Origin: an uncultured bacterium
GTDB taxonomy: Bacteria; Verrucomicrobiota; Kiritimatiellia; RFP12; UBA1067
Length of the DNA stretch: 64,000 bases
Direction of reading: 5' to 3'
Assembly (NCBI GenBank): GCA_902779565.1
Contig: CACZCD010000001.1
Span: forward strand, 3,929 to 67,928
In this document: piece by piece, positions 7,437 to 23,290 of the stretch
Numbering within the stretch: the stretch's first letter is position 1
Layout: each line of letters opens with the position of its first letter
Program-made: the position numbers and the translations under genes
Notes under the pieces: model-generated
What the model saw: the letters and a program-made list of their open reading frames with translations, nothing else
Told to the model about the DNA's origin: nothing
Database searches by the model: none

Positions 7437-7660
7437 GGCGCTTGTGCTTGTGTTTGTTGCCAGTCCGTGGCCGCGTCCGTTGTAGCCCGTTGCCTGTCCG
7501 TTAGGCGTCCGTATTAGCCCGTGTGAAGTCCGTAATCTGCCTGAAGCCTGTCCATGATATGTCCGTGGGTAGTCCGTGGTGTGTCCGTCTATGGGAGGGC
7601 GAGTGTCCTCGTGAAACGCCTCAAGTCCGTAATGCGTCCTTCTCGTATCCGTGTGAAGAA
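7437..7660 (+). repeat. Array R1: about 17 copies of GTCCGT (variants GCCCGT, GTCCTC, ATCCGT) phased at 10-12 bp (mean ~11 bp). It is an inverted copy of block B of R2.
   Basis: ccagtccgtgg ccgcgtccgtt gtagcccgttg cctgtccgtta ggcgtccgtat ... The first ~60 bp (ggcgcttgtgcttgtgtttgttgccagtccgtggccgcgtccgtt) is the near-exact reverse complement of 23225-23285. Confidence 0.85.
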
Positions 7661-7765
7661 ATGCGAAAAGGCGGGCGGCCCGAAGACCGCCCGCCGCCAC
7701 GGAGGGTGCGCGCGTCCACGAATGCAATCCGCTACGCAATCGCGCGCCTCCGTCTTTCTCCGCCC

Positions 7766-8833
7766 TTATATCGAGACGACAGTCACCGTCACCGGCGAAG
7801 AGGTGTGATCCGCACCGCCGCTGTGGCGCGTCACCGTGACCGAAACCTCGGAATTGTCCAGTACATCGTCGAGTCCGGTGGGCCACTCGGACTTCAAGTA
7901 CACATCGGTCATCTCGTGTACGCTTCCCCAGACCTCCGCACCGTCCTCGCGGGTGAATTTCACCGACAACTCTGAGCCGTCATACCCGAAGTTGCGCCCA
8001 GAGATCATGACTTCCTCTCCCTTGATGAGCTGCCCCGGTATGGCACCCGCAGCCGTAGAGACGATTGAGGTCACCACCGGTGTCAGATCCGGTCCGGGCG
8101 GGATCGCCGCCGCCTTGACCGTGACCTTGTGCAGAGCCGTGACGAGCGGAGCCGTGGGGTCGAGACCGTGCGAGACGAGCCGCACGTAGTATGTCCCCGC
8201 CGATACCGCCGAGGCGAGCGTGCAGATGATCCGCTGGCCGTCCTCGGTGGAGACCACCGTGATGTCTGCGACCTTGGTCAGTCCGTCCGCCGCAACGAGC
8301 GCAAGGGATTCGTCCTCGCCGTCCGGCACCGTGAGATCGATGCCCGCAATGCGGAACTCCTTCAGTCCGTCGATCAGGCGGTAGGTCTCGGACGCGAGAT
8401 CCATGACAGAACTGATCTTCACGTTGCCGTTCACCGCTTCCACCCCGAGGCTTGTCGGTGCTATGCCGGACACCGCATCGCGGATGTCCTGTGAGAGCGT
8501 CGCGCCGATGTAGAGCGTGTTGCGCGGGGCGCGGAACTCGTCGTCCTCGCTGTCGAACGCCCCGCCAATCATCGGATAGAGCGACACCGCGCCCATGTTG
8601 ATGCGTACGACATCGTCCGCGATCTTCTCGGCGGCAAACTCATAGAACGCGTTCAGGAAGTACTGCGCCGTAGCGCGGGTCATGAACGTGCCCCTGTCGA
8701 GCATCCGCTGGAGGATGTTGTCGTAGGCGAGCGAGCCAATCGGAACGGCCACGCCAAGATACGGAGCCTTCGCCGCCGTCGAAGTGCCGTTACGCACGAG
8801 ACGGTAGCCGACTTTCATTGTCTTCGTTGACAT
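7766..8833 (-). CDS. HU-like DNA-binding domain protein of the Bacteroidetes type (HU fold N-terminus + Ig-like/DUF4469-type C-terminal extension), paralog A
   Basis: 355 aa. It is paralogous to the next gene (RINMGAVSLYPMIGGAFDSEDDEFRAPRNTLYIGATL vs RINLGQLTTGFAIRGAFMSEDEAFDPERHQLIATIRTL). The N-terminal pattern resembles Bacteroides histone-like proteins. Confidence 0.5.
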   Translation of the reverse strand: MSTKTMKVGYRLVRNGTSTAAKAPYLGVAVPIGSLAYDNILQRMLDRGTFMTRATAQYFLNAFYEFAAEKIADDVVRINMGAVSLYPMIGGAFDSEDDEFRAPRNTLYIGATLSQDIRDAVSGIAPTSLGVEAVNGNVKISSVMDLASETYRLIDGLKEFRIAGIDLTVPDGEDESLALVAADGLTKVADITVVSTEDGQRIICTLASAVSAGTYYVRLVSHGLDPTAPLVTALHKVTVKAAAIPPGPDLTPVVTSIVSTAAGAIPGQLIKGEEVMISGRNFGYDGSELSVKFTREDGAEVWGSVHEMTDVYLKSEWPTGLDDVLDNSEVSVTVTRHSGGADHTSSPVTVTVVSI

Positions 8834-8850
8834 GATGTTTATCCTTTCTT

Positions 8851-9558
8851 TTATTCCGCCTTCACGACAATGTTCTTCACCTTTGCCGTTGCGGGCTTCA
8901 GCGATTCGCGCATCCCGTTGCGGCAGCTCACGACAAGCGTGTACGTGCCGGGTTCAGGCGGCTCCGCGAAGACGCAGTCGATGGTCTGGCTATCGCTCCG
9001 CTCCACTGTCGCCGTGGCGACGATGTCGCCCGTCTTGGCGTTGACGAGCCACACGCCCTCGTCCGGGTTGTCCGGCGAGATGCCGAGTTTCTGACCCTGA
9101 ATGAGCACGCGATTCGTGCCGGTGATCTCGGAAACGCGCTTCGTGACGGCGTCCATCACGGCGGCGACCGTACAGGTGAGACCGAGCGTGACGTTCTCCG
9201 GCAGCACCGCCGACATCGCACTCTTGAGCGGATCGAGCGTGCGTATCGTCGCGATGAGCTGGTGCCGTTCCGGATCGAACGCCTCATCCTCGCTCATGAA
9301 CGCGCCGCGTATCGCGAAGCCCGTGGTGAGCTGTCCGAGGTTAATGCGGTAGCCCGCAATCAGCTGAGTCATGATCTCCTCCGAGAGCGCGTCGAGGAAG
9401 TACTTCCACAGCGATGCGTCCTGCTTGGTGCGCTCCGCAAGACGCTCCGCGAGTTCATCGCGCCCGATCGTGCCGTTCGTCTGAACGTGGGCTGTATAGA
9501 CCACGCGATCCGTGATTGCGTCAGGAACACGCGTCAGGGAGAATACGATATTGTCCAT
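8851..9558 (-). CDS. HU-like DNA-binding domain protein of the Bacteroidetes type, paralog B
   Basis: 235 aa. TNGTIGRDELAERLAERT matches the ...TGTIDxDELAEEIAE... helix of Bacteroidetes HU-like proteins, and the C-terminal region is beta-rich. Confidence 0.55.
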   Translation of the reverse strand: MDNIVFSLTRVPDAITDRVVYTAHVQTNGTIGRDELAERLAERTKQDASLWKYFLDALSEEIMTQLIAGYRINLGQLTTGFAIRGAFMSEDEAFDPERHQLIATIRTLDPLKSAMSAVLPENVTLGLTCTVAAVMDAVTKRVSEITGTNRVLIQGQKLGISPDNPDEGVWLVNAKTGDIVATATVERSDSQTIDCVFAEPPEPGTYTLVVSCRNGMRESLKPATAKVKNIVVKAE

Positions 9559-9571
9559 TGCATTCCCCCTT

Positions 9572-9763
9572 TCACTTGTTCACCTGAATGCCGAACGGCA
9601 CGCCAAGCCCCACAACCCCGATTGTGTGTGCGGAGTCCGCCGGAGTCGTGACGGCGGTGCATCCCGCAAGCGCCGCACCTGCGACGCCCGCAACGGCCGC
9701 AACTGCGGCCCGTACCGCCTCCTTCAGGAAGGCGATCAGCTTGTTCTTCAGCTTGCTTTTCAT
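9572..9763 (-). CDS. Small lipoprotein (64 aa) with signal peptide and lipobox LAGC
   Basis: MKSKLKNKLIAFLKEAVRAAVAAVAGVAGAALAGCTAV.... The ORF-track start at 9952 is probably over-extended. Confidence 0.4.
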   Translation of the reverse strand: MKSKLKNKLIAFLKEAVRAAVAAVAGVAGAALAGCTAVTTPADSAHTIGVVGLGVPFGIQVNK

Positions 9764-9876
9764 TGACTGTTTTCCTTTGTCTGCATTGAACGGCGGCGAG
9801 CGCATGGCCACGCGGACATGTACGTCCTCCGCCACCATGCATTGGCGTCGGGGATGCGTCCGGGTTCGGAAAATCT

Positions 9877-10374: not shown

Positions 10375-10479
10375 GCCAATGTCCTTTTTCTGGTGGAGGT
10401 CCGGCCCATTCCAGACACTCCCAAGACATTGGCATCGACTTCGCCATCAGGTTCGGTTTCAACGAAAACAATTCAAAAA

Positions 10480-10625
10480 ACTTAGCAGGGTGCGACACCC
10501 GGACATCGCACCCTGCAATCACCAAACTCCGCAAGGTGCGACACGGACACTTCGCACCCTGCGACTCTCTCTTGTTGCACCCTGCAACATCGCGCTATCG
10601 CACCTTGCCACTTTCGCCCGTCATA
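10480..10625. promoter_or_regulatory. Iteron-like operator array: two good and two degenerate ~46-bp direct repeats, each with an internal dyad GGTGCGA-N10-TCGCACC
   Basis: GCAGGGTGCGAcacccggacaTCGCACCCTGC, then caaGGTGCGAcacggacactTCGCACCCTGCGAC, then gcaccctgcaac...tcgcacc and ccctgcgac. It sits upstream of the sigma-like gene in a 430-bp noncoding gap. Confidence 0.4.
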
Positions 10626-10803
10626 CCCTGCGACTCAAAAAACCTCTTTTAGGGCACCCAAACCACCGCCCCCGCATCATCGCGCCGCCCCTCCGCTCAT
10701 GCATTGAAGGCCCCTGTTCTCCACCGTTTTAACAAAGGAGGGCCGCCACCGACATTGGCCTGCCTTCCGAATTCATTGGTGCAATAGCTTGTTCATTCAT
10801 AGT

Positions 10804-11634
10804 TTACATCTTTGGCATCGTGTCCTTCATGCCAAGCGCAAGATACTTGGAGCGCGCATAGTCGTAGTACTTGAGATCGACTATGGAATTCTCTGGAATG
10901 CCGATCGAGGCAAGGTAGCGGTGACGTGCAGTGGTGTCCACGCCATCGGTGCAGCCGGGCACAACAAGGCAGCGAACCTCCATCTTCGCCTTCGCCGCGA
11001 CCAGCCGCTCAAGATTCTTCCTGACGATCTTGTTTGAAACTCCCGTGTACTTCATGTGCAACGTATCGTCCTCGGCCTTGTAGTCTGGGAGCCACAGGTC
11101 CGTGACGGGCAGCATCGCGTCAATCGCAGCGGGTGGCGCGTAGAGCGATGTGTCAAGGCATGTATGAAGTCCGGCGGCCTTGAATGCCTTGAACAGCTCC
11201 GCCGCCCATTCCCAGAAGAACAGCGGTTCGCCGCCGGAGAGCGTCACGCCACCGCCCGACTCGTCGTAGAACGCCTTGTCCTCAAGAGCCTTCGCGACGA
11301 TCTCGGGAATCGTCATCGGCTTGCCGTAGAGCTTGAGCGCCCGCGTCGGACACGTTGCCTCGTCCATCGTGCAATGCTCGTGGTGCTTGCACAGGTGCTG
11401 GAACCGCGCCCACTGCGCCTCAGACTTTATCGATTCGGGGTTGTGGCACCAGATGCACTTCAAGGGGCACCCCTTCACGAAGAAGGTCGTGCGGATGCCC
11501 GGCCCGTCCCAGATCGCCATCCGTTTAGTGTCGAGCATCAGCGGCGCCTTAACGGCACGCCCGGCTGCGGACAGCATTGGGCTTACGGCAAACGCTGTCG
11601 AAGATACGATGAAACTCTTGCGCGTTACAGTCAT
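10804..11634 (-). CDS. Glycyl-radical enzyme activating enzyme (radical SAM)
   Basis: WDGPGIRTTFFVKGCPLKCIWCHNPES (CX3CX2C radical-SAM cluster in the GRE-AE context), plus a second Cys cluster CKHHEHC...C. The true start is probably an internal Met (e.g. 11538). Confidence 0.75.
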   Translation of the reverse strand: MTVTRKSFIVSSTAFAVSPMLSAAGRAVKAPLMLDTKRMAIWDGPGIRTTFFVKGCPLKCIWCHNPESIKSEAQWARFQHLCKHHEHCTMDEATCPTRALKLYGKPMTIPEIVAKALEDKAFYDESGGGVTLSGGEPLFFWEWAAELFKAFKAAGLHTCLDTSLYAPPAAIDAMLPVTDLWLPDYKAEDDTLHMKYTGVSNKIVRKNLERLVAAKAKMEVRCLVVPGCTDGVDTTARHRYLASIGIPENSIVDLKYYDYARSKYLALGMKDTMPKM

Positions 11635-11717
11635 TATGTCACCACTGCTTCATGATATTCTCGGCACGGCGGATGTAGGCATGCCCTTATTGTGCCACAT
11701 TGGCGCATCAGCCACTT

Positions 11718-14700
11718 TCAAGGCAAATATGGACGAATGCAGACGAAATTGACGCCCAGGCGCTCACCCTTGGACGCGGCCTCGTCCGTGATCACGAGTT
11801 CCGTTTCGCCGCGCTCGGCCGCAAACACGACCTGATGCAGGTTGATCCGCCCGTATTTGCCCTTCTTCTTGCTGACCTTCGTGCTGCGGTCAACATATGA
11901 CCAGCTGAGTTCGGGAAGCAACCGCACACCGTCCTTGAAGATGGCCTTAAGCGGAATTTCGCGCGGGTTGGCCTTTCCGGCCTTCATGTCGTCCACATCA
12001 AACGTGGCGTACCTGAGAACGTATGTCCTCCCAGCGACAAGGCCGCAGACCGACTGCGTAAGGTTGTTCGCGGTTTCGCCGCGCTTGAACGAAGCGAAGG
12101 TGTCGCCGCATCCAGTTCTGCCCGCCAGATAACGGTTTTCGGCCCACTCGGCAAGCTTGGGGCATTCGTCAAGCGTCACGTCCCCATGCACCTTCCACGG
12201 CCCGAAAGCGTGCTCGAAATCGCCGTTCCGGAGATGGCCCGGGATGTAGCGCAGACCATACTGCTCCGCAATCGAATCGGTGCGTCCCTCTATGCAGTAG
12301 TGCCGCATCAGGCGGAACGACCAGCGCAGCGTATCGTCATCGGCATGATGGGCGCCCCAGTAACCGGCGGCGACGAGACCATCGCATCGCGGGTCGGTGG
12401 CGAGCGCGTGTATCTGCATCGCGAGATACGCGTTGTAATCGACCTCGGGATGGTGCGCGATCGAAAGCTGCAGAAGCCCCGTGAAGTTCCCACTGACCAC
12501 GCCCAGGCAGTCCTGGCAGAACGGATGCGTATCGCGATACAGCCCCACGCCGACAATCATGGATTCGATGGCCGCAAGCGCCTCAGCCTCCGTCTTTTTC
12601 GTGCGCATATAGCGCTCGTTGAGGAGAAGTCCGCGCCCATGGCCGGCATTCGCAATCGCCGCGAACATCTCGGACTCAATCGGCCGCCGCGTTGGCGACG
12701 CGATCACCCAGGTGCAGACCGTCCGCTCCGTGTCGCGTTCCGCGCAGAACTTCTCGATGGCGTCTATGAACTCCATGTTGGTCTTGTCGTTCTTCGGGCG
12801 GAGTCCCTGTTCGTCGAGCGTGATGCCGTCGCATGCGCGCTGGTTCAGCCCCGTCGATCTGCCGATGTTCCTGCTCATCCTCTCGGCCGTGCCGAGCGTC
12901 CTCACGTTCGCGAGCCACTGCCGCCCGAGGTCGTGCAACCGCCCGATGCTCTCCTTGGGCGCAGGCCCGCCGTTCATCGTCGTCACGCTTGGAACCACGT
13001 AGCGCCAGTAGAAGTCCCAATCGTAGCTCTCCTTGAGCGGCAGCTTGCGCGCGTAGGGGGCATAACAGATGATCATGGGGATCTCGCGCACCGCAATCCG
13101 CCCGGCGCCCTTGACGGCAAGCTGGTGCTCGCCTTGAGAAACAAGCCGCACCGTCTCCAGGGCGGGCGTGCCGTTCGTTATCACGCACTGCCCGTCAAGG
13201 CTTACCTCCGCGCTGTCAGCACCCGACACTCCGATGAACACCCATCCGTGTCTCCGCGTCTCGAACAGAAACTCTCCGGACGTCTCCTCCCCTGGCATTT
13301 TGGCGTCCAGCACCTCGGTCACGTAGTTGTTGAGTCGTTTGCGCCGCTCGGGATGCTTGATCTCCTGCACGGTCTCCACGCCGTACCGATACTTCTTCTC
13401 GTGTATTGCCGTTCCATCGCTGCGGCGCACCAGCGAAACCGTCATACAACCGGAATCGGCATTCTCCGGTAACGTGAAGAACATCTCGTCGCGCACAAGC
13501 GGTGCCCGCAGTTCGCCGCCCCATCCTTCGGAAGATATGAAGACGTCGCAAGTGCTCAGATCGGCGCCGCCCGGCAACTCCCCGAAAAAGCGAAACGAGA
13601 AACGCCGGTCGTCGCTTCTGATCCGCGCAAGCCGGCGGCTCCAAGGCACGAAGCGGGGCTTGCCGTCCACGGATTCGACGGTCCTGTCGGCATCCGAATG
13701 GGCAGTCCAGAATATGGCCGGCCTCAGATCGACATCGCCATCTGCGAGCGTAAACTTCACGTCCTCGAGCTTCACGTTGTCGGCGCAGTCGATGTAGAGG
13801 CCGAATGCCGGCAGGATTGAGGACCCGAAGCTGACCGCAGCATCAGGATACGCTCCCGGCAGCTTCGGCACGGGCTTTTCCATCGCCTCCTTGCTCTTCT
13901 CCTCCCCGGCACCATGGCATGTGATCTTCACGTTCCGCAACGTTACGTTCTTCGCGCGGCATCCGTCAACGCCGGTGATGGAGCTCGCCACAACGCCGTC
14001 CGCCTCGCCCGTCACGTTCTCGATCACGATGTCGCGCAGGATGTAGCTTTTGCCCGGCGACACTCCGGTTGAACGCCCGGTGCGCGTGCCGCCGCGCACG
14101 AATATCGGAACCTTCGCGCCATTCTCAAACGTTATACCGCTGTACCGCACCTGCTCCACCATTCCACCGTCCACGCACTCAACGGAGATGGCCGAGTTGG
14201 CAACGCCGAACGGCGCGCGCTTCGTCGCGCGCCAGAAATACCTGTTCTTCCCGCGATGTTTGGGATTCTTCGAAAGACAGTCGCGCCTCGCGGCCTCGCA
14301 GCGACAGTCTTCGAAGCGGATATTGCGCACCGTGCCGTGGCTGGCCGTGCCTATCTTGAACACGTTGCATTGCGAGCGCCCCACGCAGCGGCGGATCAGG
14401 ACGTTCTCCACGGTGTAGTCTGGGTCGTTGGATTTTATGCAGAACGCATCGTCGCCCGAATCGACATCGCAGTCCTCGATAAGCACGTTCTTCGCCTCGA
14501 TGTCGAACCCGTCGTTGAAGGAATCGGCATGGCTATCGACCTTCACGCGCCGCGCCACAACGTCCTCGCAGCGCTTGAACACGATTCCCCAGCAGGCCGC
14601 GTCGCGCAGGGTGAAATCCTCCAGACGCACCCCCTTGCAGTCCCCGAAGAACAGTCCGCGTGCGTTCAGGCCCTCGCGGCAACCCTTGACGTCCTTCGGG

Positions 14701-15065
14701 CGCTGCGGCCAGCTGAAGCCGTCGCCAAACACCGTCCCCGGCCCCGTGACCGCAACGTTCGTGGCGCAGAGCGCGAACACCACCGCGCTCCACGTCCCCT
14801 CGGAACACGGAAGTTCGGTTACGCGGTAGTCCTTGATGTTCGCAGACCCTTGCAGAACTGCGCCTTCGGCAAGATGCAGCTCCACATTGCTCTTGAGGTC
14901 AAGCTGTCCCACAAGATGCCGCCCGGCCGGCACAACCACCCGTCCACCGCCAGCCGCGTTCGCCGCATCGATCGCGGTCTGCCAGCGCGCGGTTTCGAAA
15001 CCATCTGCAAAAGCGGCCAGCTTGATTGCGCCGGCCGCCGCTACGCAAAATGCACGCAACATCAC
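11718..15065 (-). CDS. Large secreted multidomain glycoside hydrolase with an N-terminal GH28 (pectin-lyase-fold) domain
   Basis: 1115 aa with a signal peptide. GH28 motifs: SGDDAFCIKS (GDD catalytic) and GTASHG (GHG). A long uncharacterised C-terminal region follows. Confidence 0.7.
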   Translation of the reverse strand: MMLRAFCVAAAGAIKLAAFADGFETARWQTAIDAANAAGGGRVVVPAGRHLVGQLDLKSNVELHLAEGAVLQGSANIKDYRVTELPCSEGTWSAVVFALCATNVAVTGPGTVFGDGFSWPQRPKDVKGCREGLNARGLFFGDCKGVRLEDFTLRDAACWGIVFKRCEDVVARRVKVDSHADSFNDGFDIEAKNVLIEDCDVDSGDDAFCIKSNDPDYTVENVLIRRCVGRSQCNVFKIGTASHGTVRNIRFEDCRCEAARRDCLSKNPKHRGKNRYFWRATKRAPFGVANSAISVECVDGGMVEQVRYSGITFENGAKVPIFVRGGTRTGRSTGVSPGKSYILRDIVIENVTGEADGVVASSITGVDGCRAKNVTLRNVKITCHGAGEEKSKEAMEKPVPKLPGAYPDAAVSFGSSILPAFGLYIDCADNVKLEDVKFTLADGDVDLRPAIFWTAHSDADRTVESVDGKPRFVPWSRRLARIRSDDRRFSFRFFGELPGGADLSTCDVFISSEGWGGELRAPLVRDEMFFTLPENADSGCMTVSLVRRSDGTAIHEKKYRYGVETVQEIKHPERRKRLNNYVTEVLDAKMPGEETSGEFLFETRRHGWVFIGVSGADSAEVSLDGQCVITNGTPALETVRLVSQGEHQLAVKGAGRIAVREIPMIICYAPYARKLPLKESYDWDFYWRYVVPSVTTMNGGPAPKESIGRLHDLGRQWLANVRTLGTAERMSRNIGRSTGLNQRACDGITLDEQGLRPKNDKTNMEFIDAIEKFCAERDTERTVCTWVIASPTRRPIESEMFAAIANAGHGRGLLLNERYMRTKKTEAEALAAIESMIVGVGLYRDTHPFCQDCLGVVSGNFTGLLQLSIAHHPEVDYNAYLAMQIHALATDPRCDGLVAAGYWGAHHADDDTLRWSFRLMRHYCIEGRTDSIAEQYGLRYIPGHLRNGDFEHAFGPWKVHGDVTLDECPKLAEWAENRYLAGRTGCGDTFASFKRGETANNLTQSVCGLVAGRTYVLRYATFDVDDMKAGKANPREIPLKAIFKDGVRLLPELSWSYVDRSTKVSKKKGKYGRINLHQVVFAAERGETELVITDEAASKGERLGVNFVCIRPYLP

Positions 15066-16402
15066 TCAATGCTCCCCATGCAGACGAGACGCACACCGTG
15101 CGTCTCGCTTCTATACGTCGGAGAGCCGTTCCCACGCGAAGCAGACCTGCATAAAGAAGCCGCACTTCCGTAGTAACCTCCACGCACAACGCGCATAGAT
15201 GAAGTGCCACGCCGCGGAGACTGGCCATCGTCGGAGACGTTTGCCGCTCCGTTGAGGCTGGAGCAGTCGTCCACATAGTAGTCGTGGCACCATTCCCCCA
15301 AGTTGCCATGCATATCGTAGAGTCCCCAACTATTCTTGCCGTACGACCCGACAGCCGCAGTTGCGTTGTTGGTGGTGCAGAACCTGTCGGGAGCGTCCGT
15401 ACCGTTCACAAGCCCGCCGTTGTACTTGTACCGCCCTGGCAGATTGGAATCTTCTTCCGCATTAGAGTACGGAGTGCCGTCGCCCCATTTGCCTTCGCCG
15501 TTGCCGGCGCGGCAAGCGAATTCCCACTGCGCTTCCGTGGGCATGTCGAAGTCTATGCTTGTCCGCTTGCGAATCATTCCGAGAAATGAATTCTTATGTG
15601 GTGCTTGGGGCCAGTAGGTGGTCTTGTCTGGTTGCACCTGGCTGGTAGTCACCCACCCGGAACACCTGATCTCGGTATAGGCAACGCGATCTACCGGACG
15701 CATTGCTTTGTATGCCTCGTTCGTGTATATGCTGGGGCACTTCCCCATCACGTGATACCATTGCGTCTGGGTCACGGGGAATACGCCGATGTAGTAGTCG
15801 TTCGAGAGCGTCACGAGATGCGGAATTTCGTTTGCCGAGTTGCGCCCAGCCTCGTTGACGCTGCCCATGGTCCACTCCACGTTCTTCGCGTGGATGCGGC
15901 GCATGACCATCTTCGTGGTGCGGTAGTCGTCGTTGCCAAGAAGGCCGCCGGGAAGGAACTCCTCGGACGGATAGTACGCCTGCGTATTTGTCGATACGGT
16001 TGTGATATCCACCACCATGTAGTCCGGCGGCGCGTTCGTCTCCCAGGCCGTGAGAACGGCGCGGATGTTGTTCGCGGGAACCCTGTGTCCCGGCCACGAG
16101 AGGTCGGGCCGCCATTTGATGGAGTAGCGCGACTTGCCGCCAACGATACGGAACACGTCGCTGTCCTCGGTGAAGTTCTGGATGTGTTCGCCGCCGATCG
16201 ACACCCATCCGTTCGCGCCGTTCGTCTGCACGTCAAGCGTCACCACCGCCGGAGACTGCGTGAGTGAATACTCGATGGTTACCGTTCGCCTGACTTGCCG
16301 CACCGTCATGTCTGTGACCTCAGGAAGGTCCGCAATTCCGGAGACGGCGGCGCACGCCGTAATTGCCGCCGCGAATGCCATTTTCATCTTCTGTGCTTTC
16401 AT
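15062..16402 (-). CDS. FGE-sulfatase (SUMF1/EgtB/PvdO) domain protein with N-terminal signal peptide and extra N-terminal domain
   Basis: The C-terminal half ...WEFACRAGNGEGKWGDG...RVVRGGYYGSAASLCRSASRG...HGVRLVC matches the formylglycine-generating-enzyme-like fold. ATGA overlap with the GH28 gene. Confidence 0.65.
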   Translation of the reverse strand: MKAQKMKMAFAAAITACAAVSGIADLPEVTDMTVRQVRRTVTIEYSLTQSPAVVTLDVQTNGANGWVSIGGEHIQNFTEDSDVFRIVGGKSRYSIKWRPDLSWPGHRVPANNIRAVLTAWETNAPPDYMVVDITTVSTNTQAYYPSEEFLPGGLLGNDDYRTTKMVMRRIHAKNVEWTMGSVNEAGRNSANEIPHLVTLSNDYYIGVFPVTQTQWYHVMGKCPSIYTNEAYKAMRPVDRVAYTEIRCSGWVTTSQVQPDKTTYWPQAPHKNSFLGMIRKRTSIDFDMPTEAQWEFACRAGNGEGKWGDGTPYSNAEEDSNLPGRYKYNGGLVNGTDAPDRFCTTNNATAAVGSYGKNSWGLYDMHGNLGEWCHDYYVDDCSSLNGAANVSDDGQSPRRGTSSMRVVRGGYYGSAASLCRSASRGNGSPTYRSETHGVRLVCMGSIE

Positions 16403-16423
16403 TGTTTTTCCTCTTTGATTGGG

Positions 16424-16621
16424 TTACCTGATGCAGACCGAAATTCCACGGAAGAGCCCGTCGCTGTTAAAGTCGAATCCGGAGACCGCCGTTTCCGTGC
16501 AGTATCTGGTATCAAGCTCGAAACCGAACAAAGCCACGCCTGGCATCACCACGTCGTCTGACGCGGTGGAGGCCGCCATCAATGCCGCCGTTGCGGCAAG
16601 AACTGCAATCTTCTTCATCAT
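16424..16621 (-). CDS. Small secreted protein (65 aa)
   Basis: MMKKIAVLAATAALMAASTASDD... signal peptide. Its ATG overlaps the stop of the upstream gene (ATGA). The ORF-track start at 16846 is over-extended. Confidence 0.35.
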   Translation of the reverse strand: MMKKIAVLAATAALMAASTASDDVVMPGVALFGFELDTRYCTETAVSGFDFNSDGLFRGISVCIR

Positions 16622-17685
16622 GCTCTCTCCTTTTGTTTTAATGCTTCTGCGAAAAGATCTATACCCTTGAGGTTGAAGTCGAGGTTCGCCTGCGAACAGC
16701 AGTTGGCCCATGGGGCCATGAGAAAACCGAGGAGGTGTTCGCTCAATATGTGCTTGCGGCAGTACGGCACGAGCGCGCCGATGATGTCGTCGCCGCCGGT
16801 CTTCTGCCGTTTGCGCGCACCGGCGCCCGCCCAGTTCGTGCCGCACGGTATCTGGTCGAAGCCAGCCTTCTCAAGCGCATCGAACGCAGCAAGGCGGTGC
16901 GCGTGCCTGTTGATCTTCGGATCGAGCGACCATTGTCCGAGCTGTTCGTCGTAGTACCAGTTGGACTGCACCACGCTTCTCGGGCAGCGCGTGAAGAACT
17001 CCTCGTGCTCCCAGCCGAAATCACTCCACACCCAGGCGCGCGAGCCAAGCTCCTCCACGCAGCCGACGGTGTAGAGGAAATCGCGCCACCACATGTCGCC
17101 CTGGCGCATGACGAAGTAGTCGCGCCCAGGCGCAAAAAGCGCAGTCTCCTCGTCCCAGCCGAGGTGGAAGAAGCGAGGACGCGAGAAGATCTCCGAAACG
17201 TCACGGATGACGTCTTTGGCCACAATATACCATTCCGGCAGCGTCAACATCCTATGATAATCCTTAAGCCAGCCGTCGTGCGTAGCGGAGAAGTTCAGCT
17301 TCGGGATCGGCTCAAGGCCTGCGGTCCTTAGGCGCTCCACCTCCGCGCGAAGCTTCTCCGCCGACCAGCTGCCCTCAATCGCCAGCTCGGGATGGCTGGG
17401 ATAGATGAGACCCTCGCCGATATCAATCACGATCATGTTGAGATTGCGCTCAACCATCCTATCCGTCACGCGCCGCCAAAGTTCTTCCTTGCATCGAAGG
17501 TTCAGGTCTGGAGTCAGGCGTTTCGGCAGGGAATGCCAAAGATGGCGCGGCAGCCACTCGCCCCACATGTTGTGGCCAAGATGCATCAGCATGGCGCGGA
17601 TGGGTTCCTTCCCGCCTGCATAAGCACCGCCCGCCCCGCGCGTTCCGCGCGAGGCATCGGTGTTGCTATTGATGTCAGTTGCCAT
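16618..17685 (-). CDS. GH20-like (beta-hexosaminidase-fold TIM barrel) protein, family assignment tentative
   Basis: NLNMIVIDIGEGLIY ... EPIPKLNFSATHDGW ... FFHLGWDEE resembles the GH20 catalytic-domain pattern (PEID.PGH ... HIGGDE), with WDEE in place of GGDE. Confidence 0.4.
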   Translation of the reverse strand: MATDINSNTDASRGTRGAGGAYAGGKEPIRAMLMHLGHNMWGEWLPRHLWHSLPKRLTPDLNLRCKEELWRRVTDRMVERNLNMIVIDIGEGLIYPSHPELAIEGSWSAEKLRAEVERLRTAGLEPIPKLNFSATHDGWLKDYHRMLTLPEWYIVAKDVIRDVSEIFSRPRFFHLGWDEETALFAPGRDYFVMRQGDMWWRDFLYTVGCVEELGSRAWVWSDFGWEHEEFFTRCPRSVVQSNWYYDEQLGQWSLDPKINRHAHRLAAFDALEKAGFDQIPCGTNWAGAGARKRQKTGGDDIIGALVPYCRKHILSEHLLGFLMAPWANCCSQANLDFNLKGIDLFAEALKQKERA

Positions 17686-17820
17686 TTGCTTTATGCCGCT
17701 TGATCCTGATGCAACTCTGGTTGTTCCTTAATTGGCGCGTGTTATATCCCGACCGCATCCTATTTCGCAATCCCGATAGAAAGGTGAATCCGCCATCTCG
17801 CATAGGACAGTCATTGTGTG

Positions 17821-20229
17821 TCACCATCCCTTCATCACGTTTTCTGCACGGCGGATGTAGGCATCCTGTTCGGCCTTGCACATATCATTCCACCGCACGT
17901 TCCATCCGCAAATACGAACCTGTAGATTCTCGTATTTTTCGGGGTGCGCCTGGGCATCACGGAGCATCTCTGCACTGAACACGGTGAACTGGATCACGCC
18001 GCCACCGTTTCGGTGGAACATCTGAACGAGCGCACGCATGGCCGCCAGCCCCTTTTCACCCTGAACGACTGACGGATGAAGTAATACGTCAAGCGGATAG
18101 TCGCTTGGTAGCTTCTCCGCCGAAGAAGAAGCCAGGGTCGCAACGAGCGCCGTGGCACCCTCTGTATCGGCTCCCATCGTAGGAGAAAGGTTCTTCGAGA
18201 GTTCATCGCCCTTTTTGCGTCCGTCAGGTGACGCGGGCGTCTTCTTCCCGAGCTCAATGAAGCGCCGCGAGGAATGCCCGCTCGCCAGAAAGATCCCGCC
18301 ACGAGAATTGGGGATGCCATTCAGGTTGGAAGCGAATACATCGATTATCTCTGCGCCCAATGCGTTGGACTCCGGGTCGTTGTTGCCCCACTTCCGCTTT
18401 GAGCGTAGCATCCTCAGGCGCAGCGCCTCATGTCCTTCCCAATCTGATGCCATGATTTCGCCAAGTACGGCCAGCGACTTTTCACGCTTTTCATAGACAA
18501 TCTCCTTCACGGCCAGCAACGCATCCACCGAACTGCCAAGGCCTAACGCGCGCAGCGTGGTATCATTGCCGCGCGGGCACCCCGTTGCAAATCCATCCTG
18601 ACGGGTCTTCAGGGCGTAATCGGTCGCCAACGTCATGCAGATGGCGGGGTTGACCTCAGATAGGGCCTTTTCAATCTCGTACACGATCTTGCGGCTCCTT
18701 GTCGTGTTTTGGGCGACCCGTTTCATGTACTCCGACCGAAACACCTCGAATGTACCCCAATCGGCTGAAGGCGCGCCCTTCCGCGCCTCGTCCAGCATTT
18801 GCACCACAGGGAAGAGCAAGTTCAGGTTCACGGTGTCTGTCGTGTTCAGGCTGTCCGCCAAGCCAAATTCATAGCACCCGCGCACGGCCATGGTACGGCA
18901 GTCTTCGTCGCTTGCGTTTTTCCACCGCTTGAGTACCTTTGAAGCCGACTCCTCGCCAAGGAACGCCACGGAACGCCGCCGCCGCGCCATGTCGAGCAGT
19001 TTCGCCCACGCCCAATCCGGCGTGTTTCCGCCCACCTTCACGATGAACTTGGGTGAGGTGAGGTTGAGCTCATCGACGACATCAAGAATGATGCGCGAGA
19101 CCTCCCCGAATTCGCTGGAACCATCCTGTTTCGTGCCGCCCAGGCCCGCGGGCTGTGCATAGTAGTTCGCGGCGGAACCCCACTGCCAGAGGAAGTGCTT
19201 GATCTGCTCGCGGAATTCCGCCTCGGTCGTGCGCCCCACCGCAATGTCGGAAACATAGTAGGGCGCAAGGAACACATCCAGCTCCGTGAGTGAACGGCAC
19301 TGGATGCCATCGAGGTGTTCCGACCAGAAGAAATAAAGCCACACAAACATCAACATGTCGTAGGCCGTCTGCGGCGGGCCGTTCCGCAGACGCTCCAGAC
19401 AAGCAATTTCCTTTTTAAGACGATCCTTACCATTTGCAATTTTGATTCTTGAACAATTGAGGCAATTGTCATTTGTGAACAATTGCAGTTGTTTCCTCCC
19501 CTGTTCGACAAAACGATCTATTCCGACGAGCATTGCATCCATCGCGATGCGGCATGACTCGCAGAACGGATCGTCTTTCACAGCATACTTCTCCAGACGC
19601 GCCTTCATACCCGGGAATCCGAGCGCGAGGATTACGCGCCAGTCGGGAACGGAATGGTCGAAATCCCGCCACATGAGCCAACGTCCTTCGGCATTGCCGT
19701 CATGCCACTCTTTCCAGGCCCAACTCGGAAGCGTCCTGTTCACTTCGCCATGCCGATGCTTGCCAGCAGAACGGATGGGGCGATTCCAGCGATCCCACAC
19801 GGCTATTGCCGGGAACCAGTCGAAGGGCGACACATCTATAGATTGCCGCTCGATCTGGGCGGCAAAGCATTTCGCCTTCGTGACGCGCCAAGACTCATTT
19901 GCCGACTTGCCCTTGGCGACGATCACTGCCAATAGTTCCTTAAGGGCATCCGTGCCCAATCCCGTCGTCCTGTCAGTAACATCCTGACGGAATTTTCGGC
20001 GCAGATACGTGTCCATATCCGTGATGTTCGCGACATATGGATCCCACCAAGTGATGTCTTCGACACATCTACGCTTTGGCACGACTACTTCATCCCCAAC
20101 CGTGGATGGGGCGGCAACGCCCATCGACAGGACCGCCGCACAGACTGCCGATAGCAGATGCCGTATAAGACACTTGTCTTTCATTGCTCCTCCCATCACT
20201 TCTTCACCACAGGATTGGAACCAGCCCAC
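17821..20229 (-). CDS. Glycyl radical enzyme (PFL-like, dehydratase/lyase GCxE subclass), substrate unknown
   Basis: The C-terminal glycyl-radical domain ...MLRDAQAHPEKYENLQVRICGWNVRWNDMCKAEQDAYIRRAEN aligns with the GRE consensus ...LLDAQKHPEKY..L.VRVSGYSA.F..L....QDDII.R. An internal MAVRGCYEFG fits the GC[VLM]E thiyl-radical loop, and 802 aa is typical. The N-terminal ~70 aa (hydrophobic, signal-like) are probably not part of the mature enzyme; an alternative start is MDTYLRRKF. Confidence 0.75.
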   Translation of the reverse strand: MGWFQSCGEEVMGGAMKDKCLIRHLLSAVCAAVLSMGVAAPSTVGDEVVVPKRRCVEDITWWDPYVANITDMDTYLRRKFRQDVTDRTTGLGTDALKELLAVIVAKGKSANESWRVTKAKCFAAQIERQSIDVSPFDWFPAIAVWDRWNRPIRSAGKHRHGEVNRTLPSWAWKEWHDGNAEGRWLMWRDFDHSVPDWRVILALGFPGMKARLEKYAVKDDPFCESCRIAMDAMLVGIDRFVEQGRKQLQLFTNDNCLNCSRIKIANGKDRLKKEIACLERLRNGPPQTAYDMLMFVWLYFFWSEHLDGIQCRSLTELDVFLAPYYVSDIAVGRTTEAEFREQIKHFLWQWGSAANYYAQPAGLGGTKQDGSSEFGEVSRIILDVVDELNLTSPKFIVKVGGNTPDWAWAKLLDMARRRRSVAFLGEESASKVLKRWKNASDEDCRTMAVRGCYEFGLADSLNTTDTVNLNLLFPVVQMLDEARKGAPSADWGTFEVFRSEYMKRVAQNTTRSRKIVYEIEKALSEVNPAICMTLATDYALKTRQDGFATGCPRGNDTTLRALGLGSSVDALLAVKEIVYEKREKSLAVLGEIMASDWEGHEALRLRMLRSKRKWGNNDPESNALGAEIIDVFASNLNGIPNSRGGIFLASGHSSRRFIELGKKTPASPDGRKKGDELSKNLSPTMGADTEGATALVATLASSSAEKLPSDYPLDVLLHPSVVQGEKGLAAMRALVQMFHRNGGGVIQFTVFSAEMLRDAQAHPEKYENLQVRICGWNVRWNDMCKAEQDAYIRRAENVMKGW

Positions 20230-20511
20230 TATAGCCCTGAACAGCTATGCCAGCGATGGTCAGGCATACCCAACAGAGCATTTTAGTTTTGAATGCGTTT
20301 CTTGTCGCCATTAAATCAGATCTCTTGTTTCGCGTTCTTGAGCTAGTAGTTCTCATTGGTTTGCATGGTCTCATATTCGCGAAGAAAAATCTTGTAAAAA
20401 CAAAACGAAAATATGTATTATCAGCTCATGCGGAAATGAGCCGTACATTGGCACGGACGCGACAAGCGCGCCCAGTTTAAAGTTTAGCGTTTAGGGTTGA
20501 ACTTTAAAACT

Positions 20512-21585
20512 TCAGACTTTCAACTCCGATCCTGAGTCGCCGTCTCGTATGTATTTTACGCTACGCCCCTCTCCAACCTTGCGGACAGCACCGTTCTTGA
20601 CAAGCGAGCCAAGCACGGCTTCAACGGTCGTGGGGCTTACGTCTGGCAATGCACGGCAGATGTCGACCTTTGAGATAGGCGTCAGCGCATTGAGGACGAT
20701 GCTTTTGATCCGGGCCGACTTCGTTACGCGGCCCGTGCTCACTACGGCAAAGCGCCGGTCTAGTTCCTCGTAGCATCCATAAAGCGTCATCAGAAAATTG
20801 ACCATGAACGGGAACGGGCTGTTTTCGTTTGTCTGCCATCCTGCCGACGAATCGCGAAGTGCCGCATAATAGGCGGCCTTGTCTGCGTTGATGCGCTGCT
20901 CGAATGAAATGTACTTGCCGGCGTCGAAACCGTTCCTGTAGAGAAGCAGCAGCGTCAGCAGACGGCTCATGCGTCCGTTGCCGTCGGGGAACGGATGGAT
21001 GCAAAGGAAGTCAAGTATCACGCAAGGAATCAACAGCATCTTGTTTATCTCGACGTCGTCACGGGCCTCCATGTATGCGAGGACAAGCTGCTTCATCGCC
21101 TCCGGCGTCTCCTCCGCGCTTGCAGGGGAAAATCGCACCACGCGCCGGCCGTCTGACATGCGCTCGGCAATCACGTTATCCTCATGCTTGTATCCTGGCT
21201 CCACATCTGACGCCACATAGCGGAGCAGCATTCCGTAGAATCCAATGATGTCTGATTCGGTGAAGTCATGTAGCCGGTAGTTCAGGTGGATTTCGTTCAG
21301 GGCATCACGATAGCCGGAAATCTCCGCTTCAGTATGGTTCATGGGGGATGTCCCCTCCTGCATCAGCTCGGCAAGTCGAGCATCGGTGGTGACAATCCCT
21401 TCAATCGCGTTCGATGCCTTGACGGACTCGATCTTCGCTATGCGCTCCAGCTCCGAATATGCGTGCATAAACCTAACTTTGCGTTCAGCCGACAGCACAC
21501 GAAGAGCTGCGATGCTGCTCGTCAAGTTCACCAGTTTTGCCGGCAGCAAGTCGTTTTTCAGGTACGAATAGTCAAAGATGTGCAT
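20512..21585 (-). CDS. Fic/DOC family protein (AMPylator-type)
   Basis: Canonical Fic motif HPFPDGNGRMSRLLTLLLL. Start chosen at MHIFDYSYL (21585), preceded by AAGGAG. It lies in locally AT-rich DNA. Confidence 0.85.
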   Translation of the reverse strand: MHIFDYSYLKNDLLPAKLVNLTSSIAALRVLSAERKVRFMHAYSELERIAKIESVKASNAIEGIVTTDARLAELMQEGTSPMNHTEAEISGYRDALNEIHLNYRLHDFTESDIIGFYGMLLRYVASDVEPGYKHEDNVIAERMSDGRRVVRFSPASAEETPEAMKQLVLAYMEARDDVEINKMLLIPCVILDFLCIHPFPDGNGRMSRLLTLLLLYRNGFDAGKYISFEQRINADKAAYYAALRDSSAGWQTNENSPFPFMVNFLMTLYGCYEELDRRFAVVSTGRVTKSARIKSIVLNALTPISKVDICRALPDVSPTTVEAVLGSLVKNGAVRKVGEGRSVKYIRDGDSGSELKV

Positions 21586-21710
21586 AGTTTCTCCTTTTGT
21601 GAATAATATTATACCACCTTTTATGCACAAAAACAACAGCTCATGCATAAACATCTTATCTTTAATATGCAGATATGATGCTATACACGGGGAAACACAT
21701 AATTGACCTC

Positions 21711-21739
21711 ATTGCATCACGCCCCAAAATAGTGTATAA
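21711..21739 (+). promoter_or_regulatory. Sigma-70-type promoter for the AraC-family gene: -35 TTGCAT, 17-bp spacer with TG extension, -10 TATAAT
   Basis: ttgcat cacgccccaaaatagtg tataat at 21711-21739, about 55 bp upstream of the ATG at 21793, in an AT-rich divergent intergenic region. Confidence 0.45.
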
Positions 21740-21792
21740 TTGGCGCATCTTTCATAAGGCCGTACAATCCATCGGAAGGAGGGGAGCAAGCA

Positions 21793-22584
21793 ATGACACT
21801 ACGCGAAAGGAAGAAACTGCAACGCGACTTCTTTGAAGCCGCCGGCCCGAACACGGCCGCGTTCCGTGCACTGATTGATACGATTCCCGATGCGTGCTTC
21901 TACATGAAGGACTTGAACTGCCGCATCATGGCGCTCAACAAACGCAACTGCGAAGTGTGCAACATCAAAAACGAGCTGGATGTGGTGGGGATGCGTTCGG
22001 ACGAAGTTTTCACCCCTGCCGACGCCGAAAGCTTCATGGAACTCGACCTCGAAGTGCAAAGAACCAGAAAGCCAGCACTGAATCGCGTCGAAACGCATCC
22101 TGCCGACAAGTCACCAGGATTCACAATCGCCAGCGTCTATCCGGTCAAGAACAGATTTGGCGACATAATCGGCACCATGCGCCTGTACAGGGTATTCACG
22201 TCACACGACAATATGCCCGAATGGCATGGGCGGATGAAAGCCGTGGTAGCCTACATACAGGAACACTATGCGGAAGAAATCTCCCTTGATGAGCTGGCCA
22301 AGCTGACGGGCAGCTCGGTAAGCCAGTTCAAGCGCATCTTCACGAAGACGCTTGAGATGTCGCCCGGAAGATATATCGTCAACACCCGGATCAACGCCGC
22401 CCGCAAGCTACTGGAGACCACAGACAAGCTCGTCTCTGACATCGCGCAGGAAGTCGGCTTCTATGACCAAAGTCACATGACGCGGGCGTTCAAGACGATT
22501 CGCAGCACCACGCCCGGCGAATACCGCCGCAAGCACCGCTCCATTACGGCCAACAACTCATCCGCACCCAAACGCAAATCCTAA
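21793..22584 (+). CDS. AraC family transcriptional regulator with N-terminal PAS-like sensor domain
   Basis: C-terminal ...YIQEHYAEEISLDELAKLTGSSVSQFKRIFTKTLEMSPGRYIVNTRINAARKLLETTDKLVSDIAQEVGFYDQSHMTRAFK is a canonical AraC dual HTH. Confidence 0.8.
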   Translation: MTLRERKKLQRDFFEAAGPNTAAFRALIDTIPDACFYMKDLNCRIMALNKRNCEVCNIKNELDVVGMRSDEVFTPADAESFMELDLEVQRTRKPALNRVETHPADKSPGFTIASVYPVKNRFGDIIGTMRLYRVFTSHDNMPEWHGRMKAVVAYIQEHYAEEISLDELAKLTGSSVSQFKRIFTKTLEMSPGRYIVNTRINAARKLLETTDKLVSDIAQEVGFYDQSHMTRAFKTIRSTTPGEYRRKHRSITANNSSAPKRKS

Positions 22585-22611
22585 CCGCCCCACCCAATCC
22601 CCCACAGCCTT

Positions 22612-22735
22612 CCAACGGACAGAACACGGACAAGTTACGGACTTGCGACGGACAGCCGCTCCGCACACATAAACGGACTCGGGACGGACTGAAAACGGAC
22701 AGGCGCTCGCAGGGCGACCGCCCTGCCTCGGACAA
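22612..22735 (+). repeat. Array R2 block A: about 9 copies of ACGGAC phased at ~11 bp
   Basis: caacggacaga acacggacaag ttacggacttg cgacggacagc ... aaacggactcg ggacggactga aaacggacagg. Confidence 0.8.
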
Positions 22736-22936
22736 TCAGCCAGCGAAACCACACAATCCCCAACCACCCTCAACCGTCGCCCCGCACCCCGCGACCACTG
22801 CGTGGCTCGGCCTTCGACCTCGAATGATATCCCTGCGCAATCCCCCGCAGTTCCTCCAATCCACCACTCCTCCAATCACCCAATCCTCACACCCCACCCA
22901 CTCCACACCCGCAGAGCCAGCCTTGAACACCCTAAA

Positions 22937-22975
22937 CGATGTTCATGGTTTATAAACTCTGAACATCGGTTTTTT
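22937..22975 (+). terminator. Near-perfect 32-bp palindrome CGATGTTCAtggTTTATAAActcTGAACATCG followed by GTTTTTTG. It could be a plus-strand intrinsic terminator or a dimeric-TF operator.
   Basis: 9-bp perfect stem, 14-nt loop that is itself palindromic (GTTTATAAAC), and a T-run immediately 3' on the plus strand. It lies in the R2 core about 350 bp downstream of the AraC gene. Confidence 0.3.
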
Positions 22976-23004
22976 GCTGCACACGTATTTGCAACGTGAT
23001 TACC

Positions 23005-23290
23005 GAAGACATCCAACGGGCTTCTGACGGACACACCACGGACAGGTTACGGTCTTGCCAAGGACATCTGACGGACGGCACACGGACACACTACGGACAA
23101 GTTACGGACTGGCCACGGACGCGCAACAGACTTCATACGGGCTTAGAACGGACGAGCCACGGACAAAATACGGGCGGAACACGGACTAAAACGGACTTCT
23201 GATGGACAGCATACGGACGGATCACGGGCTACAAACGGACGCGGCCACGGACTGGCAACAAACACAAGCACAAGCGCCTTTCCCGCGGCG
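23005..23290 (+). repeat. Array R2 block B: about 22 copies of ACGGAC (variants ACGGGC, ATGGAC) phased at ~11 bp. The terminal ~60 bp is the inverted duplicate of the R1 start.
   Basis: ctgacggacac accacggacag gttacggtctt ... ctacggacaag ttacggactgg ccacggacgcg ... aaacggacgcggccacggactggcaacaaacacaagcacaagcgcc. Confidence 0.85.

Follow-up and report, generated by a model that had tools for sequence, protein, structure and literature searches.

What separates yqeY from rpmE in an uncultured rumen bacterium whose relatives keep these two genes only 53 nt apart? The question arises in a 64,000-nt stretch of contig CACZCD010000001.1 (positions 3,929 to 67,928, forward strand, assembly GCA_902779565.1), which we call the window and whose numbering is used for all coordinates given without a contig name. 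In it a 15,860 bp segment (7428-23287), capped by a 54-nt inverted repeat, lies between yqeY on one side and rpmE on the other; an examination of the letters alone (the sequence-only reading) had described it as a possible invertible or mobile island. The mobile half of that description is strongly supported by empty insertion sites in relatives and by a second copy in a diverged lineage, whereas the invertible half is not: there is no invertase, and the block has the same orientation in the two informative assemblies. We read the segment as a non-autonomous, site-specific, inverted-repeat-bounded island that is moved by an enzyme encoded elsewhere, and put the probability of this reading at roughly 0.55. 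The host belongs to the Kiritimatiellae (PVC superphylum) of the rumen and not to the Bacteroidetes, because the nearest named homologues of PrfA and of two island proteins, HU1 (HU-like) and an AraC-type regulator, are proteins of Kiritimatiellae metagenome-assembled genomes (MAGs). Contigs used for comparison carry L numbers here, and those with an empty site were found by exact look-up of the rpmE and yqeY proteins in public assemblies; all compared contigs are metagenome assemblies, and every related one comes from a rumen or gut metagenome.

The arms of the terminal repeat are complementary at 54 of 54 positions and are separated by 15,752 nt; beyond a 1-base indel at 7482/23233 they are still ~74% complementary over ~30 nt more. 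Inverted copies at the segment ends had already been noticed, and the match proves slightly longer and better than was then described. A 32-nt core of the repeat occurs at only 2 sites in the window at up to 3 mismatches, and at none in 100 shuffles. The termini of the element read CGCGGGAAAGG. Each end consists of a unique tip of ~35-50 bp, itself a hairpin and a T-rich run facing inward, followed on the inner side by a ~190-240 bp array of the hexamer ACGGAC (GTCCGT on the other strand) with one unit per helical turn. The two ends are asymmetric, the right end carrying an extra inner array (R3) in addition to the one that adjoins its tip (R2, the counterpart of R1 on the left).

Five related contigs (L003 and L009-L012) carry SASA, yqeY, rpmE and prfA as consecutive genes with a 53 nt gap between yqeY and rpmE, L003 ending within that spacer, and their flanks are 82-98% identical to the window. 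Counted over all contigs compared, seven relatives have the intact 53-nt spacer and lack the unit between the tips. Whether relatives lack the block was the check proposed along with the sequence-only reading; it is wholly absent, and homology between window and empty sites stops exactly at the repeat ends. Because yqeY and rpmE lie 53 nt apart in these relatives, the segment is an insertion between the yqeY stop codon and a putative rpmE promoter. In L003 (95.2% identical to the window, with a YqeY protein that is 100% identical) the empty site is ...CCCCGCCGC CGCG CACCCTCTTGCGCGG..., and the occupied site is ...CCCCGC CGCG[GGAAAGG ... CCTTTCC]CGCG CACCCTCTTGCGCGG... with the island in brackets. 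CGCG thus stands at both ends of the element and as a single copy in the empty sites of L003, L010 and L011; that of L011, GCCGT-CGCG-CACCCTC, agrees to the base with the sequence expected from the occupied sites if CGCG is the target. The target consensus (...CCCGY-CGCG-CACCCTC) lies just 3' of the yqeY stop codon. Counted with both CGCG, the element is 15,860 bp long; were CGCG a 4-bp duplication of the target, its length would be 15,852 bp, and the two cases are not separable because CGCG is palindromic. The left outer copy (7428-7431) may be such a duplication and lie outside the element proper.

Eight nucleotides separate the insertion point from the -35 hexamer downstream of it, in the rpmE promoter block, which is common to all rpmE loci and is called putative because it falls below the promoter-scan threshold. 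The occupied junction was assembled independently from at least three samples (ERZ28614400; Logan ERR3224601, L002; ERZ28653461, L203) and is therefore not an assembly artefact. The site just upstream of this promoter is also a recurrent synteny break in contigs encoding an identical L31 protein (L004-L008 and L013): L004 and L007 have there a RelB/PIN toxin-antitoxin pair and a uronate/glycoside hydrolase (GH) cluster (L004:9272-10000), and L005, L006, L008 and L013 an ATPase_2 gene and a rhamnosidase cluster (L005:8558-10000). At each of these breaks homology resumes no more than 2 nt from the same CGCACCC.

A second occupied lineage is represented by L203 (ENA ERZ28653461), with the gene order GRE-Fic-AraC-R3-R2-tip-yqeY-SASA, in which GRE denotes a glycyl radical enzyme. 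Over island positions 19123-22820 it differs from the window by 8 substitutions in 3,698 nt (0.2%; 99.8% identical), a count that leaves apart the neighboring patch at 22821-23015; R2 and the tip show 0 substitutions and one 1-nt indel. Identity breaks at the first base outside CGCG. The 21 nt beyond the tip contain 3 substitutions and 1 gap, and the divergence of yqeY and SASA is 4.2 and 4.5%, respectively, so that the island is ~20-fold less diverged than the backbone. Over 661 nt of backbone, L203 is nearest to the empty-site contigs L012 (96.2%), L011 (95.6%) and L010 (95.2%), and the window to the empty-site contigs L003 and L011 (95.3% each), as against 94.7% between the window and L203. 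Since each occupied backbone is closer to an empty-site contig than to the other, occupancy is polyphyletic on the backbone. Near-identity of the island, divergence of the backbones and polyphyletic occupancy together indicate that a unit extending from repeat to repeat has moved, recently, to the same nucleotide at least twice, and the unit of transfer appears to end at the inverted repeat. The patch at 22821-23015 is hypervariable, its ~195 nt containing 29 substitutions as well as 22 gap columns; it shows no mutational bias, its terminator hairpin is preserved through changes on both arms, and a recombination mosaic and repeat turnover are both possibilities for its origin. We withdrew a suggestion of purifying selection on the arrays: R2 and R3 have zero substitutions relative to L203, but the whole island is 99.8% identical.

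The same distribution could be described the other way around, with an ancestral island repeatedly lost by precise deletion and the near-identity of its copies produced by assembly collapse or chimerism. That all contigs are metagenome assemblies speaks for such an account, as does the tendency of assemblies to break at the arrays (L002, L204 and L205 end inside them), and L203 could change strain within the identical tip or array. The seven empty-site contigs, whose flanks diverge from one another by 2-18%, are nevertheless all clean and without a footprint, and repeated base-perfect deletion would itself need site-specific excision, which is mobility under another name. Nor is the island of L203 that of the window strain, as it carries the diverged 195-nt patch and 8 other differences, and the nearness of both occupied backbones to empty-site genomes likewise disagrees with loss. 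We regard this account as quite improbable.

Phased GTCCGT/ACGGAC arrays inside both arms had also been described from the letters, and were recovered with 14 units in R1 and 22 in R2, R3 being an addition. Units in all three arrays are spaced by 11 nt, rarely by 10 or 12. Across a strictly phased stretch of 16 units in R2, conservation is 75-100% in the six columns of the motif but 31-38% (approximately random) in the five of the spacer; the period 11 score of R2 is 0.76, compared to a mean of 0.43 and a maximum of 0.51 in shuffles. The base 3' of ACGGAC is never C (44/44 units), and patches of R1 and R2 are similar at the level of their spacers. No further ACGGAC arrays occur elsewhere in the 64-kb window. 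Because the motif columns are conserved while the spacers are random, the arrays carry the apparent signature of a repeated protein-binding site and not of a decaying tandem repeat. R1 and R2 are faced from the inside by terminators (7664-7700 and about 22937-22975), which, together with the hairpin and T-rich run of the tips, would shield them from transcription. An RNA function for the arrays was rejected: there is no Rfam match at gathering score in the window or at E<=1 in 22400-23400, no stable fold (z-score -1.0 relative to shuffles), and helical phasing is meaningless for RNA. The AraC-type regulator was likewise rejected as the array binder, there being no ACGGAC pairs in island promoter regions and AraC paralogues existing elsewhere without arrays.

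Under the reading of a non-autonomous island, a recombinase or transposase supplied from elsewhere in the genome, or by a helper element, would bind cooperatively to the phased hexamers along one face of the DNA; the protein filament so formed on each end would pair the two ends, and the enzyme would cut and join at the tips, possibly duplicating CGCG. The inner terminators and the outer hairpin/T-rich tip would keep the arrays free of transcription. Carried along would be a catabolic operon under AraC control (GRE, GH28 and an FGE-sulfatase-like protein), a Fic protein and an operon of sigma-like and HU-like genes. This conclusion must be tempered by several points that weigh against it. No transposase, integrase, invertase or conjugation gene was detected among the island open reading frames (ORFs), each searched against Pfam, NCBIfam, PHROGs and PDB sequences, or in the rest of the window, searched against Pfam, and the mobilizing enzyme was thus not found in those searches. 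No extra copies of the tip were present in ~335 kb of related Kiritimatiellae loci, elsewhere in the window, or in JGI metagenomes, viral contigs, plasmids or phages; mobility accordingly rests on one target site, with no third tip copy. At 15.9 kb the segment is unusually large for a non-autonomous element, and the palindromic CGCG taken as a target duplication could equally be part of the repeat. The second lineage was compared at its right junction only, and L203, a metagenome contig, could be a chimera of two strains with its joint within the identical island, which would weaken the contrast of 99.8% against 95%; even then, the presence of the same tip at the same nucleotide on a 5%-diverged backbone stays. 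To these must be added the occurrence of arrays with neither tip nor island in L131, described below, by which the arrays may have a function other than transposition.

Transformation or conjugation, followed by homologous recombination in the conserved flanks, might instead account on its own for the spread of an island without a mobility enzyme. In that case the arrays would be architectural or regulatory DNA, for example platforms on which the HU-like proteins of the island insulate, silence or loop it, and the ends would have arisen by inverted duplication of an array normally situated 3' of the HU operon. This operon consists of four minus-strand genes encoding a sigma-like protein of 165 aa (u165), a tiny lipoprotein-like ORF and two HU-like/Ig-domain proteins (HU1, HU2). 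In L131-L133, where no island surrounds it, it is 96.8% identical and is followed by ACGGAC arrays that resemble R1 and R2 down to their spacers, with no detectable tip in L131; in other lineages (L134, L135, L154) HU1 orthologues are followed by different short-period arrays (7-nt GTTAGT/GGTTGG). The single known insertion site also suits spread by flank recombination, as do terminators that bracket the arrays, an arrangement expected of a protein platform acting at the level of DNA. Homologous recombination needs tens of bases of flank. Donor sequence would therefore pass the boundary, yet the break relative to L203 is sharp, falling at the first base outside the repeat with differences in the 21 nt that follow. 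The original, clean-ended arrival of the segment between yqeY and rpmE is moreover left unexplained, and HU1 orthologues in L140-L142, L155 and L156 have no downstream array. We consider spread of this kind, the main rival to our reading, unlikely; the HU proteins may nonetheless be linked to the arrays.

The HU operon itself is a conserved operon of the Kiritimatiellae lineage and not a marker of mobility. Relatives hold it in at least five other contexts (GH20 genes and a tRNA, FTHFS, D-Tyr deacylase, M20 peptidase, DAHP synthase), in none of which it is bracketed by inverted repeats, and no homologues were found in plasmid or phage collections. The suggestion that HU-like paralogs point to Bacteroidetes mobile DNA accordingly falls away, in a Kiritimatiellae host with a lineage-wide operon, and we rejected the operon as machinery of the element given its many non-island contexts and the restriction of the arrays to some lineages. 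Copies lie at 7766-10640 in the window, L131:5686-8573, L134:142-2781, L135:7930-11104, L140:1049-3609 and L141:1622-3711, and the lipoprotein-like ORF ranges from 63 to 94 aa among relatives. Iterons upstream of the operon are lineage-specific (GCACCCTGC in the window and L131; TTCAATCCGATG in L135). Most homologues of the operon are on contigs of 1-2.5 kb, which suggests that repeats flanking it on both sides break assemblies. In L131 (8589-9560 and 9873-12411, with a scaffold gap) ~700 bp of arrays run up to a tRNA as ACGGAC, inverted GTTCGT (11-nt period) and again ACGGAC; directly after the tRNA gene come a large serine recombinase (Resolvase, Recombinase and Zn_ribbon domains) and DUF2924, a region that is probably an integrated prophage.

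Symmetrical ends also invite the idea of an invertible switch, in which recombination between the 54-bp arms flips the 15.7-kb block and swaps the genes lying next to the yqeY flank and the rpmE flank; an inverted repeat of 54 bp without mismatches suffices for low-frequency RecA-dependent inversion. Against a switch, no invertase or recombinase gene was found in the searches above, and the orientation is the same in the two independent, informative assemblies that extend through the right junction as far as unique array sequence (window/L001 and L203). GC skew is negative across the block as in its flanks, with no flip, and terminators face both arrays, so that a flip would rewire no promoter. 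Empty sites are unexplained by inversion. We hold this to be very improbable.

The ends of the island are unusual for bacteria, and the likenesses to known systems are partial in each case. The closest in overall architecture are Foldback (FB) elements and those hAT/CACTA elements that have subterminal hexamer repeats; both occur in eukaryotes, and strict phasing of the repeats to the helical turn is not known from them. The island resembles them in its unique tip and short-motif arrays within long inverted ends, the lack of an internal transposase, the unrelated cargo carried between the ends, and clean presence or absence at a site; a Foldback-type architecture is indeed present (tip plus 14 and 22 phased units, inverted, with partly homologous spacers). 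It differs in its bacterial host, 15 kb operon cargo and apparent site specificity, and the likeness is architectural only. Tn7 (tnsABCDE, 22-bp TnsB sites, TGT termini, 5-bp duplication) inserts at the fixed attTn7 site and is the nearest parallel in choice of site. The island shares with it one fixed position just 3' of a conserved housekeeping gene, asymmetric ends with multiple sites and a large cargo, and lacks tns genes and tns-type domains, TGT termini, TnsB sites and the 5-bp duplication, having 6-mers repeated at 11 bp and at most 4 bp duplicated. In parC of plasmid R1, ten 11-bp iterons in helical phase are bound cooperatively by ParR in a superhelical complex that pairs DNA, with parMR adjacent; the island arrays, by contrast, cap a chromosomal island in inverted orientation, with no ParM/ParR-type genes. 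Cis-mobilizable elements (CIMEs) are integrase-less islands moved by the recombinase of a related element; att repeats in direct orientation bound them, and as a rule they sit at tRNA genes or other sites used by integrases. The island is like them in having recombination-type ends on both sides and no recombinase of its own, and unlike them in its inverted ends, which share no more than a 4-bp palindrome with the target. The nearest bacterial precedent for direct short motifs in helical phase near the ends is IS1535 of the IS607 family, in which the transposase binds cooperatively to four helically phased 9-bp repeats near the end and forms on them a filament by which the other end is captured (PMC6188088). 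IS607 elements lack terminal inverted repeats, make no target duplication and carry a serine transposase of their own. The island, with 14-22 hexamers at either end, is bounded by a perfect 54-bp inverted repeat, and we could find no transposase gene in it.

Wherever membership in a named family could be tested, it was the enzyme that the island lacked. Terminal inverted repeats like those of an autonomous DDE transposon or a composite element bounded by insertion sequences (ISs) are present (54/54 nt at the exact insertion boundaries), without a transposase gene and without copies at different sites, the tip being known at one site in two lineages. Long inverted repeats had been offered as possible ends of a composite element; this was rejected, since there is no transposase in the island or its flanks and the ends are not two IS copies. 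For the IS607 family, the window contains no resolvase-type domain and has a perfect terminal inverted repeat instead. An integrative and conjugative element, integrative and mobilizable element or prophage is not indicated in a window with no integrase and no tRNA genes in its 64 kb, in which the ends are inverted and not direct and the only phage-type match is a Fic-family PHROG. An invertase-controlled segment fails on the absence of an invertase and the single orientation, and a Bacteroidetes conjugative or mobilizable transposon on the Kiritimatiellae host and the absence of tra, mob and int domains.

It is tempting to go further and propose an undescribed class of cargo-carrying foldback elements in PVC bacteria, with ends paired by an outside enzyme that profiles do not recognize, a fixed site by the rpmE promoter and array units in Lentisphaeria as cargo-less relatives; we hold this as a tentative and rather doubtful extension. 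In a scan of one genome per species for at least 4 ACGGAC units at 11-nt spacing, two Lentisphaeria MAGs (JAPXLT01 and JAQVUB01; L014-L130) dominate among the matches listed; each has dozens of arrays, the longest listed having 23 units. Such an array is a run of 5-23 units, every one of them ACACGGAC plus either GGG or TTT, in an irregular, barcode-like order. At least 25 of these arrays directly abut a conserved ~57-nt leader (TTTTTTAACCACGAACCACACGAAAAGGCTTGGCG-hairpin-AACCCAC), and some have inverted copies of the leader on either side and further short arrays alongside, forming a mosaic repeated element. Leader-array units recur every 2-5 kb, often at contig ends (e.g. L030:234-428, L045:2858-3085, L099:9-179 and 1630-1768), and the arrays are often followed by CCCTGCA, GTCCATT or GTCGGAT arrays and sometimes by an inverted leader copy. 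A helper transposase beside the Lentisphaeria arrays was sought and rejected, the sole recurrent family being prepilin-type paralogues. We also rejected 11-nt ACGGAC arrays as a widespread bacterial signal: matches in Streptomyces, Bacteroidota and other non-PVC bacteria are background tandem repeats, because control hexamers of the same composition match comparably (73 and 20 loci in viral contigs, compared to 44 for ACGGAC). ACGGAC arrays thus seem to belong to the repeated DNA of PVC bacteria, a distribution that would fit a lineage-specific binding protein.

Among the abundant degraders of polysaccharides in rumen and gut are the Kiritimatiellae and their PVC relatives, whose mobile DNA is almost undescribed; a literature search returned nothing on DUF4469, Kiritimatiellae repeats or Kiritimatiellae mobile elements. 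Here the boundaries of an island are resolved to the single nucleotide, and a complete catabolic operon (GRE, activase, GH28, FGE-sulfatase-like) with its regulator moves between strains without a recognizable recombinase. The element is of a known type, an island or non-autonomous transposon; that it marks a new mobilization system is conceivable, and we would not presume it. If the phased arrays are a recognition platform, their binding protein would define such a system, more islands could be found in these genomes from their ends alone, and the protein might provide a tool for site-specific insertion in an otherwise intractable phylum. Island finders that depend on integrases or transposases would miss an element of this kind, which is a warning for annotation.

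The features of the island and its junctions are collected in Table 1.

Table 1. Features of the island between yqeY and rpmE and of its junctions, in window coordinates.
Feature	Position	Strand	Description
Conserved block, chromosomal flank	7392..7427	-	Putative rpmE promoter TTGCGC-N17-TATCAT; -35 at 7420-7415, -10 at 7397-7392
Left terminal inverted repeat (tip)	7428..7481	+	CGCG GGAAAGGCGCTTGTGCTTGTGTTTGTTGCCA and first two GTCCGT units; empty-site relatives break here
R1 array	7468-7657	-	14 ACGGAC units, 11-bp phase, random 5-nt spacers
Terminator, HU operon	7664..7700	-	Strong hairpin and T-run before R1: GGCGGGCGGTCTTCGGGCCGCCCGCC TTTTCGCATTTC; kept in L131
HU1	7766..8833	-	HU-like DNA-binding domain and two Ig-like domains; PF14848 E=7.5e-13, weak DUF4469/TIG
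HU2	8851..9558	-	HU-like domain and DUF4469 Ig-like domain; PF14848, PF14734, PF18291
Small ORF, 63-88 aa	9572..9838	-	Lipoprotein-type signal peptide, LAGC lipobox; gene call in L143, L131, L134
u165, 165 aa	9877..10374	-	Small divergent sigma-factor-like protein, first gene of HU operon
Tandem hairpins and iterons	10473..10640	.	Two 44-nt hairpin repeats, five GCACCCTGC-type iterons
Cargo catabolic operon	10804..20229	-	Five genes; Pfam, NCBIfam
Radical-SAM activase	10804-11634	-	Pfam/NCBIfam
GH28-domain protein, 1115 aa	11718-15065	-	Pfam/NCBIfam
FGE-sulfatase-like protein	15062-16402	-	Pfam/NCBIfam
355-aa protein	16618-17685	-	Weak hexosaminidase match only
Glycyl radical enzyme (GRE)	17821-20229	-	Pfam/NCBIfam
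Fic-domain protein	20512..21654	-	C-terminal winged-helix; PF02661; phrog_5978 E=2.7e-41
PAS-AraC regulator	21793..22584	+	Pfam; divergently transcribed
R3 inner array	22615-22733	+	8 ACGGAC units, orientation as R2
C-rich patch	22821..23015	+	Outward-facing terminator hairpin at about 22937-22975
R2 array	23016-23252	+	22 ACGGAC units, 11-bp phase
Right terminal inverted repeat (tip)	23234..23287	-	Mirror of 7428-7481; outer CGCG at 23284-23287
Chromosomal flank	23288..23308	-	21 nt from yqeY stop codon to element

Profile searches agree with the gene content first proposed from the letters (an HU-like pair, a sigma-like protein, an operon of GRE and carbohydrate-active enzymes, Fic and AraC) and with its core flanks, rpmE-prfA on one side and yqeY, here with a SASA-family esterase, on the other. 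HU1 has 187 homologues, among which the C-terminal ~105 aa are hypervariable; in its AlphaFold2 (AF2) model the Ig domains are confident and the HU-like N-terminal domain is of low confidence. The sigma-like u165 gives weak profile matches to TIGR02937 and SigF region 4. Its AF2 model (pLDDT 82) finds sigma factors as all of its best PDB matches, with weak E-values and a local sigma-4 match at an rmsd of 2.4 A. The hairpins and iterons between the catabolic operon and the HU operon include predicted terminators of the upstream catabolic operon. That operon is an unusual combination of radical chemistry with pectin-type glycosidase genes; its GRE is nearest to the PFL2/glycerol-dehydratase and hydroxyproline-dehydratase subfamilies, with scores far under their cut-offs. 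The PAS-AraC regulator belongs to a large paralogous family whose members neighbor clusters of carbohydrate-active enzymes and sulfatases in Kiritimatiellae.

AT-rich patches near Fic had been remarked upon and are real: GC drops to 0.50-0.55 around Fic and AraC, and the Fic gene has the lowest value of the island (0.534). Third-position GC (GC3) and codon use are typical in the left two-thirds of the island and mildly atypical only in GRE, Fic and AraC. A foreign composition was therefore rejected, and since composition is mostly typical the donor was probably a related member of the Kiritimatiellae.

Two minor observations concern the flanks and spacers. The rpmE ORF (7147-7401) could encode 84 aa (ATG 7401) or 70 aa (ATG 7359), and the 70-aa form, so called in L143, is probably correct because the L31 domain begins at residue 15 of the longer form and there is overlap between the upstream ATG and the putative -10 box. 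Many spacers between co-directional genes hold tandem 7-8-nt arrays (e.g. TTCCACCT x8, CCTCTTC x6), in the window at 4708-4774, 25360-25430, 35735-35837 and 44008-44127 and in relatives at L004:12629-12734, L005:12617-12649 and L009:3033-3083 and 3390-3440. These arrays turn over very quickly; in the spacer from U32 peptidase to 5'-nucleotidase, either the number of copies (8 vs 12) or the motif itself varies among close relatives.

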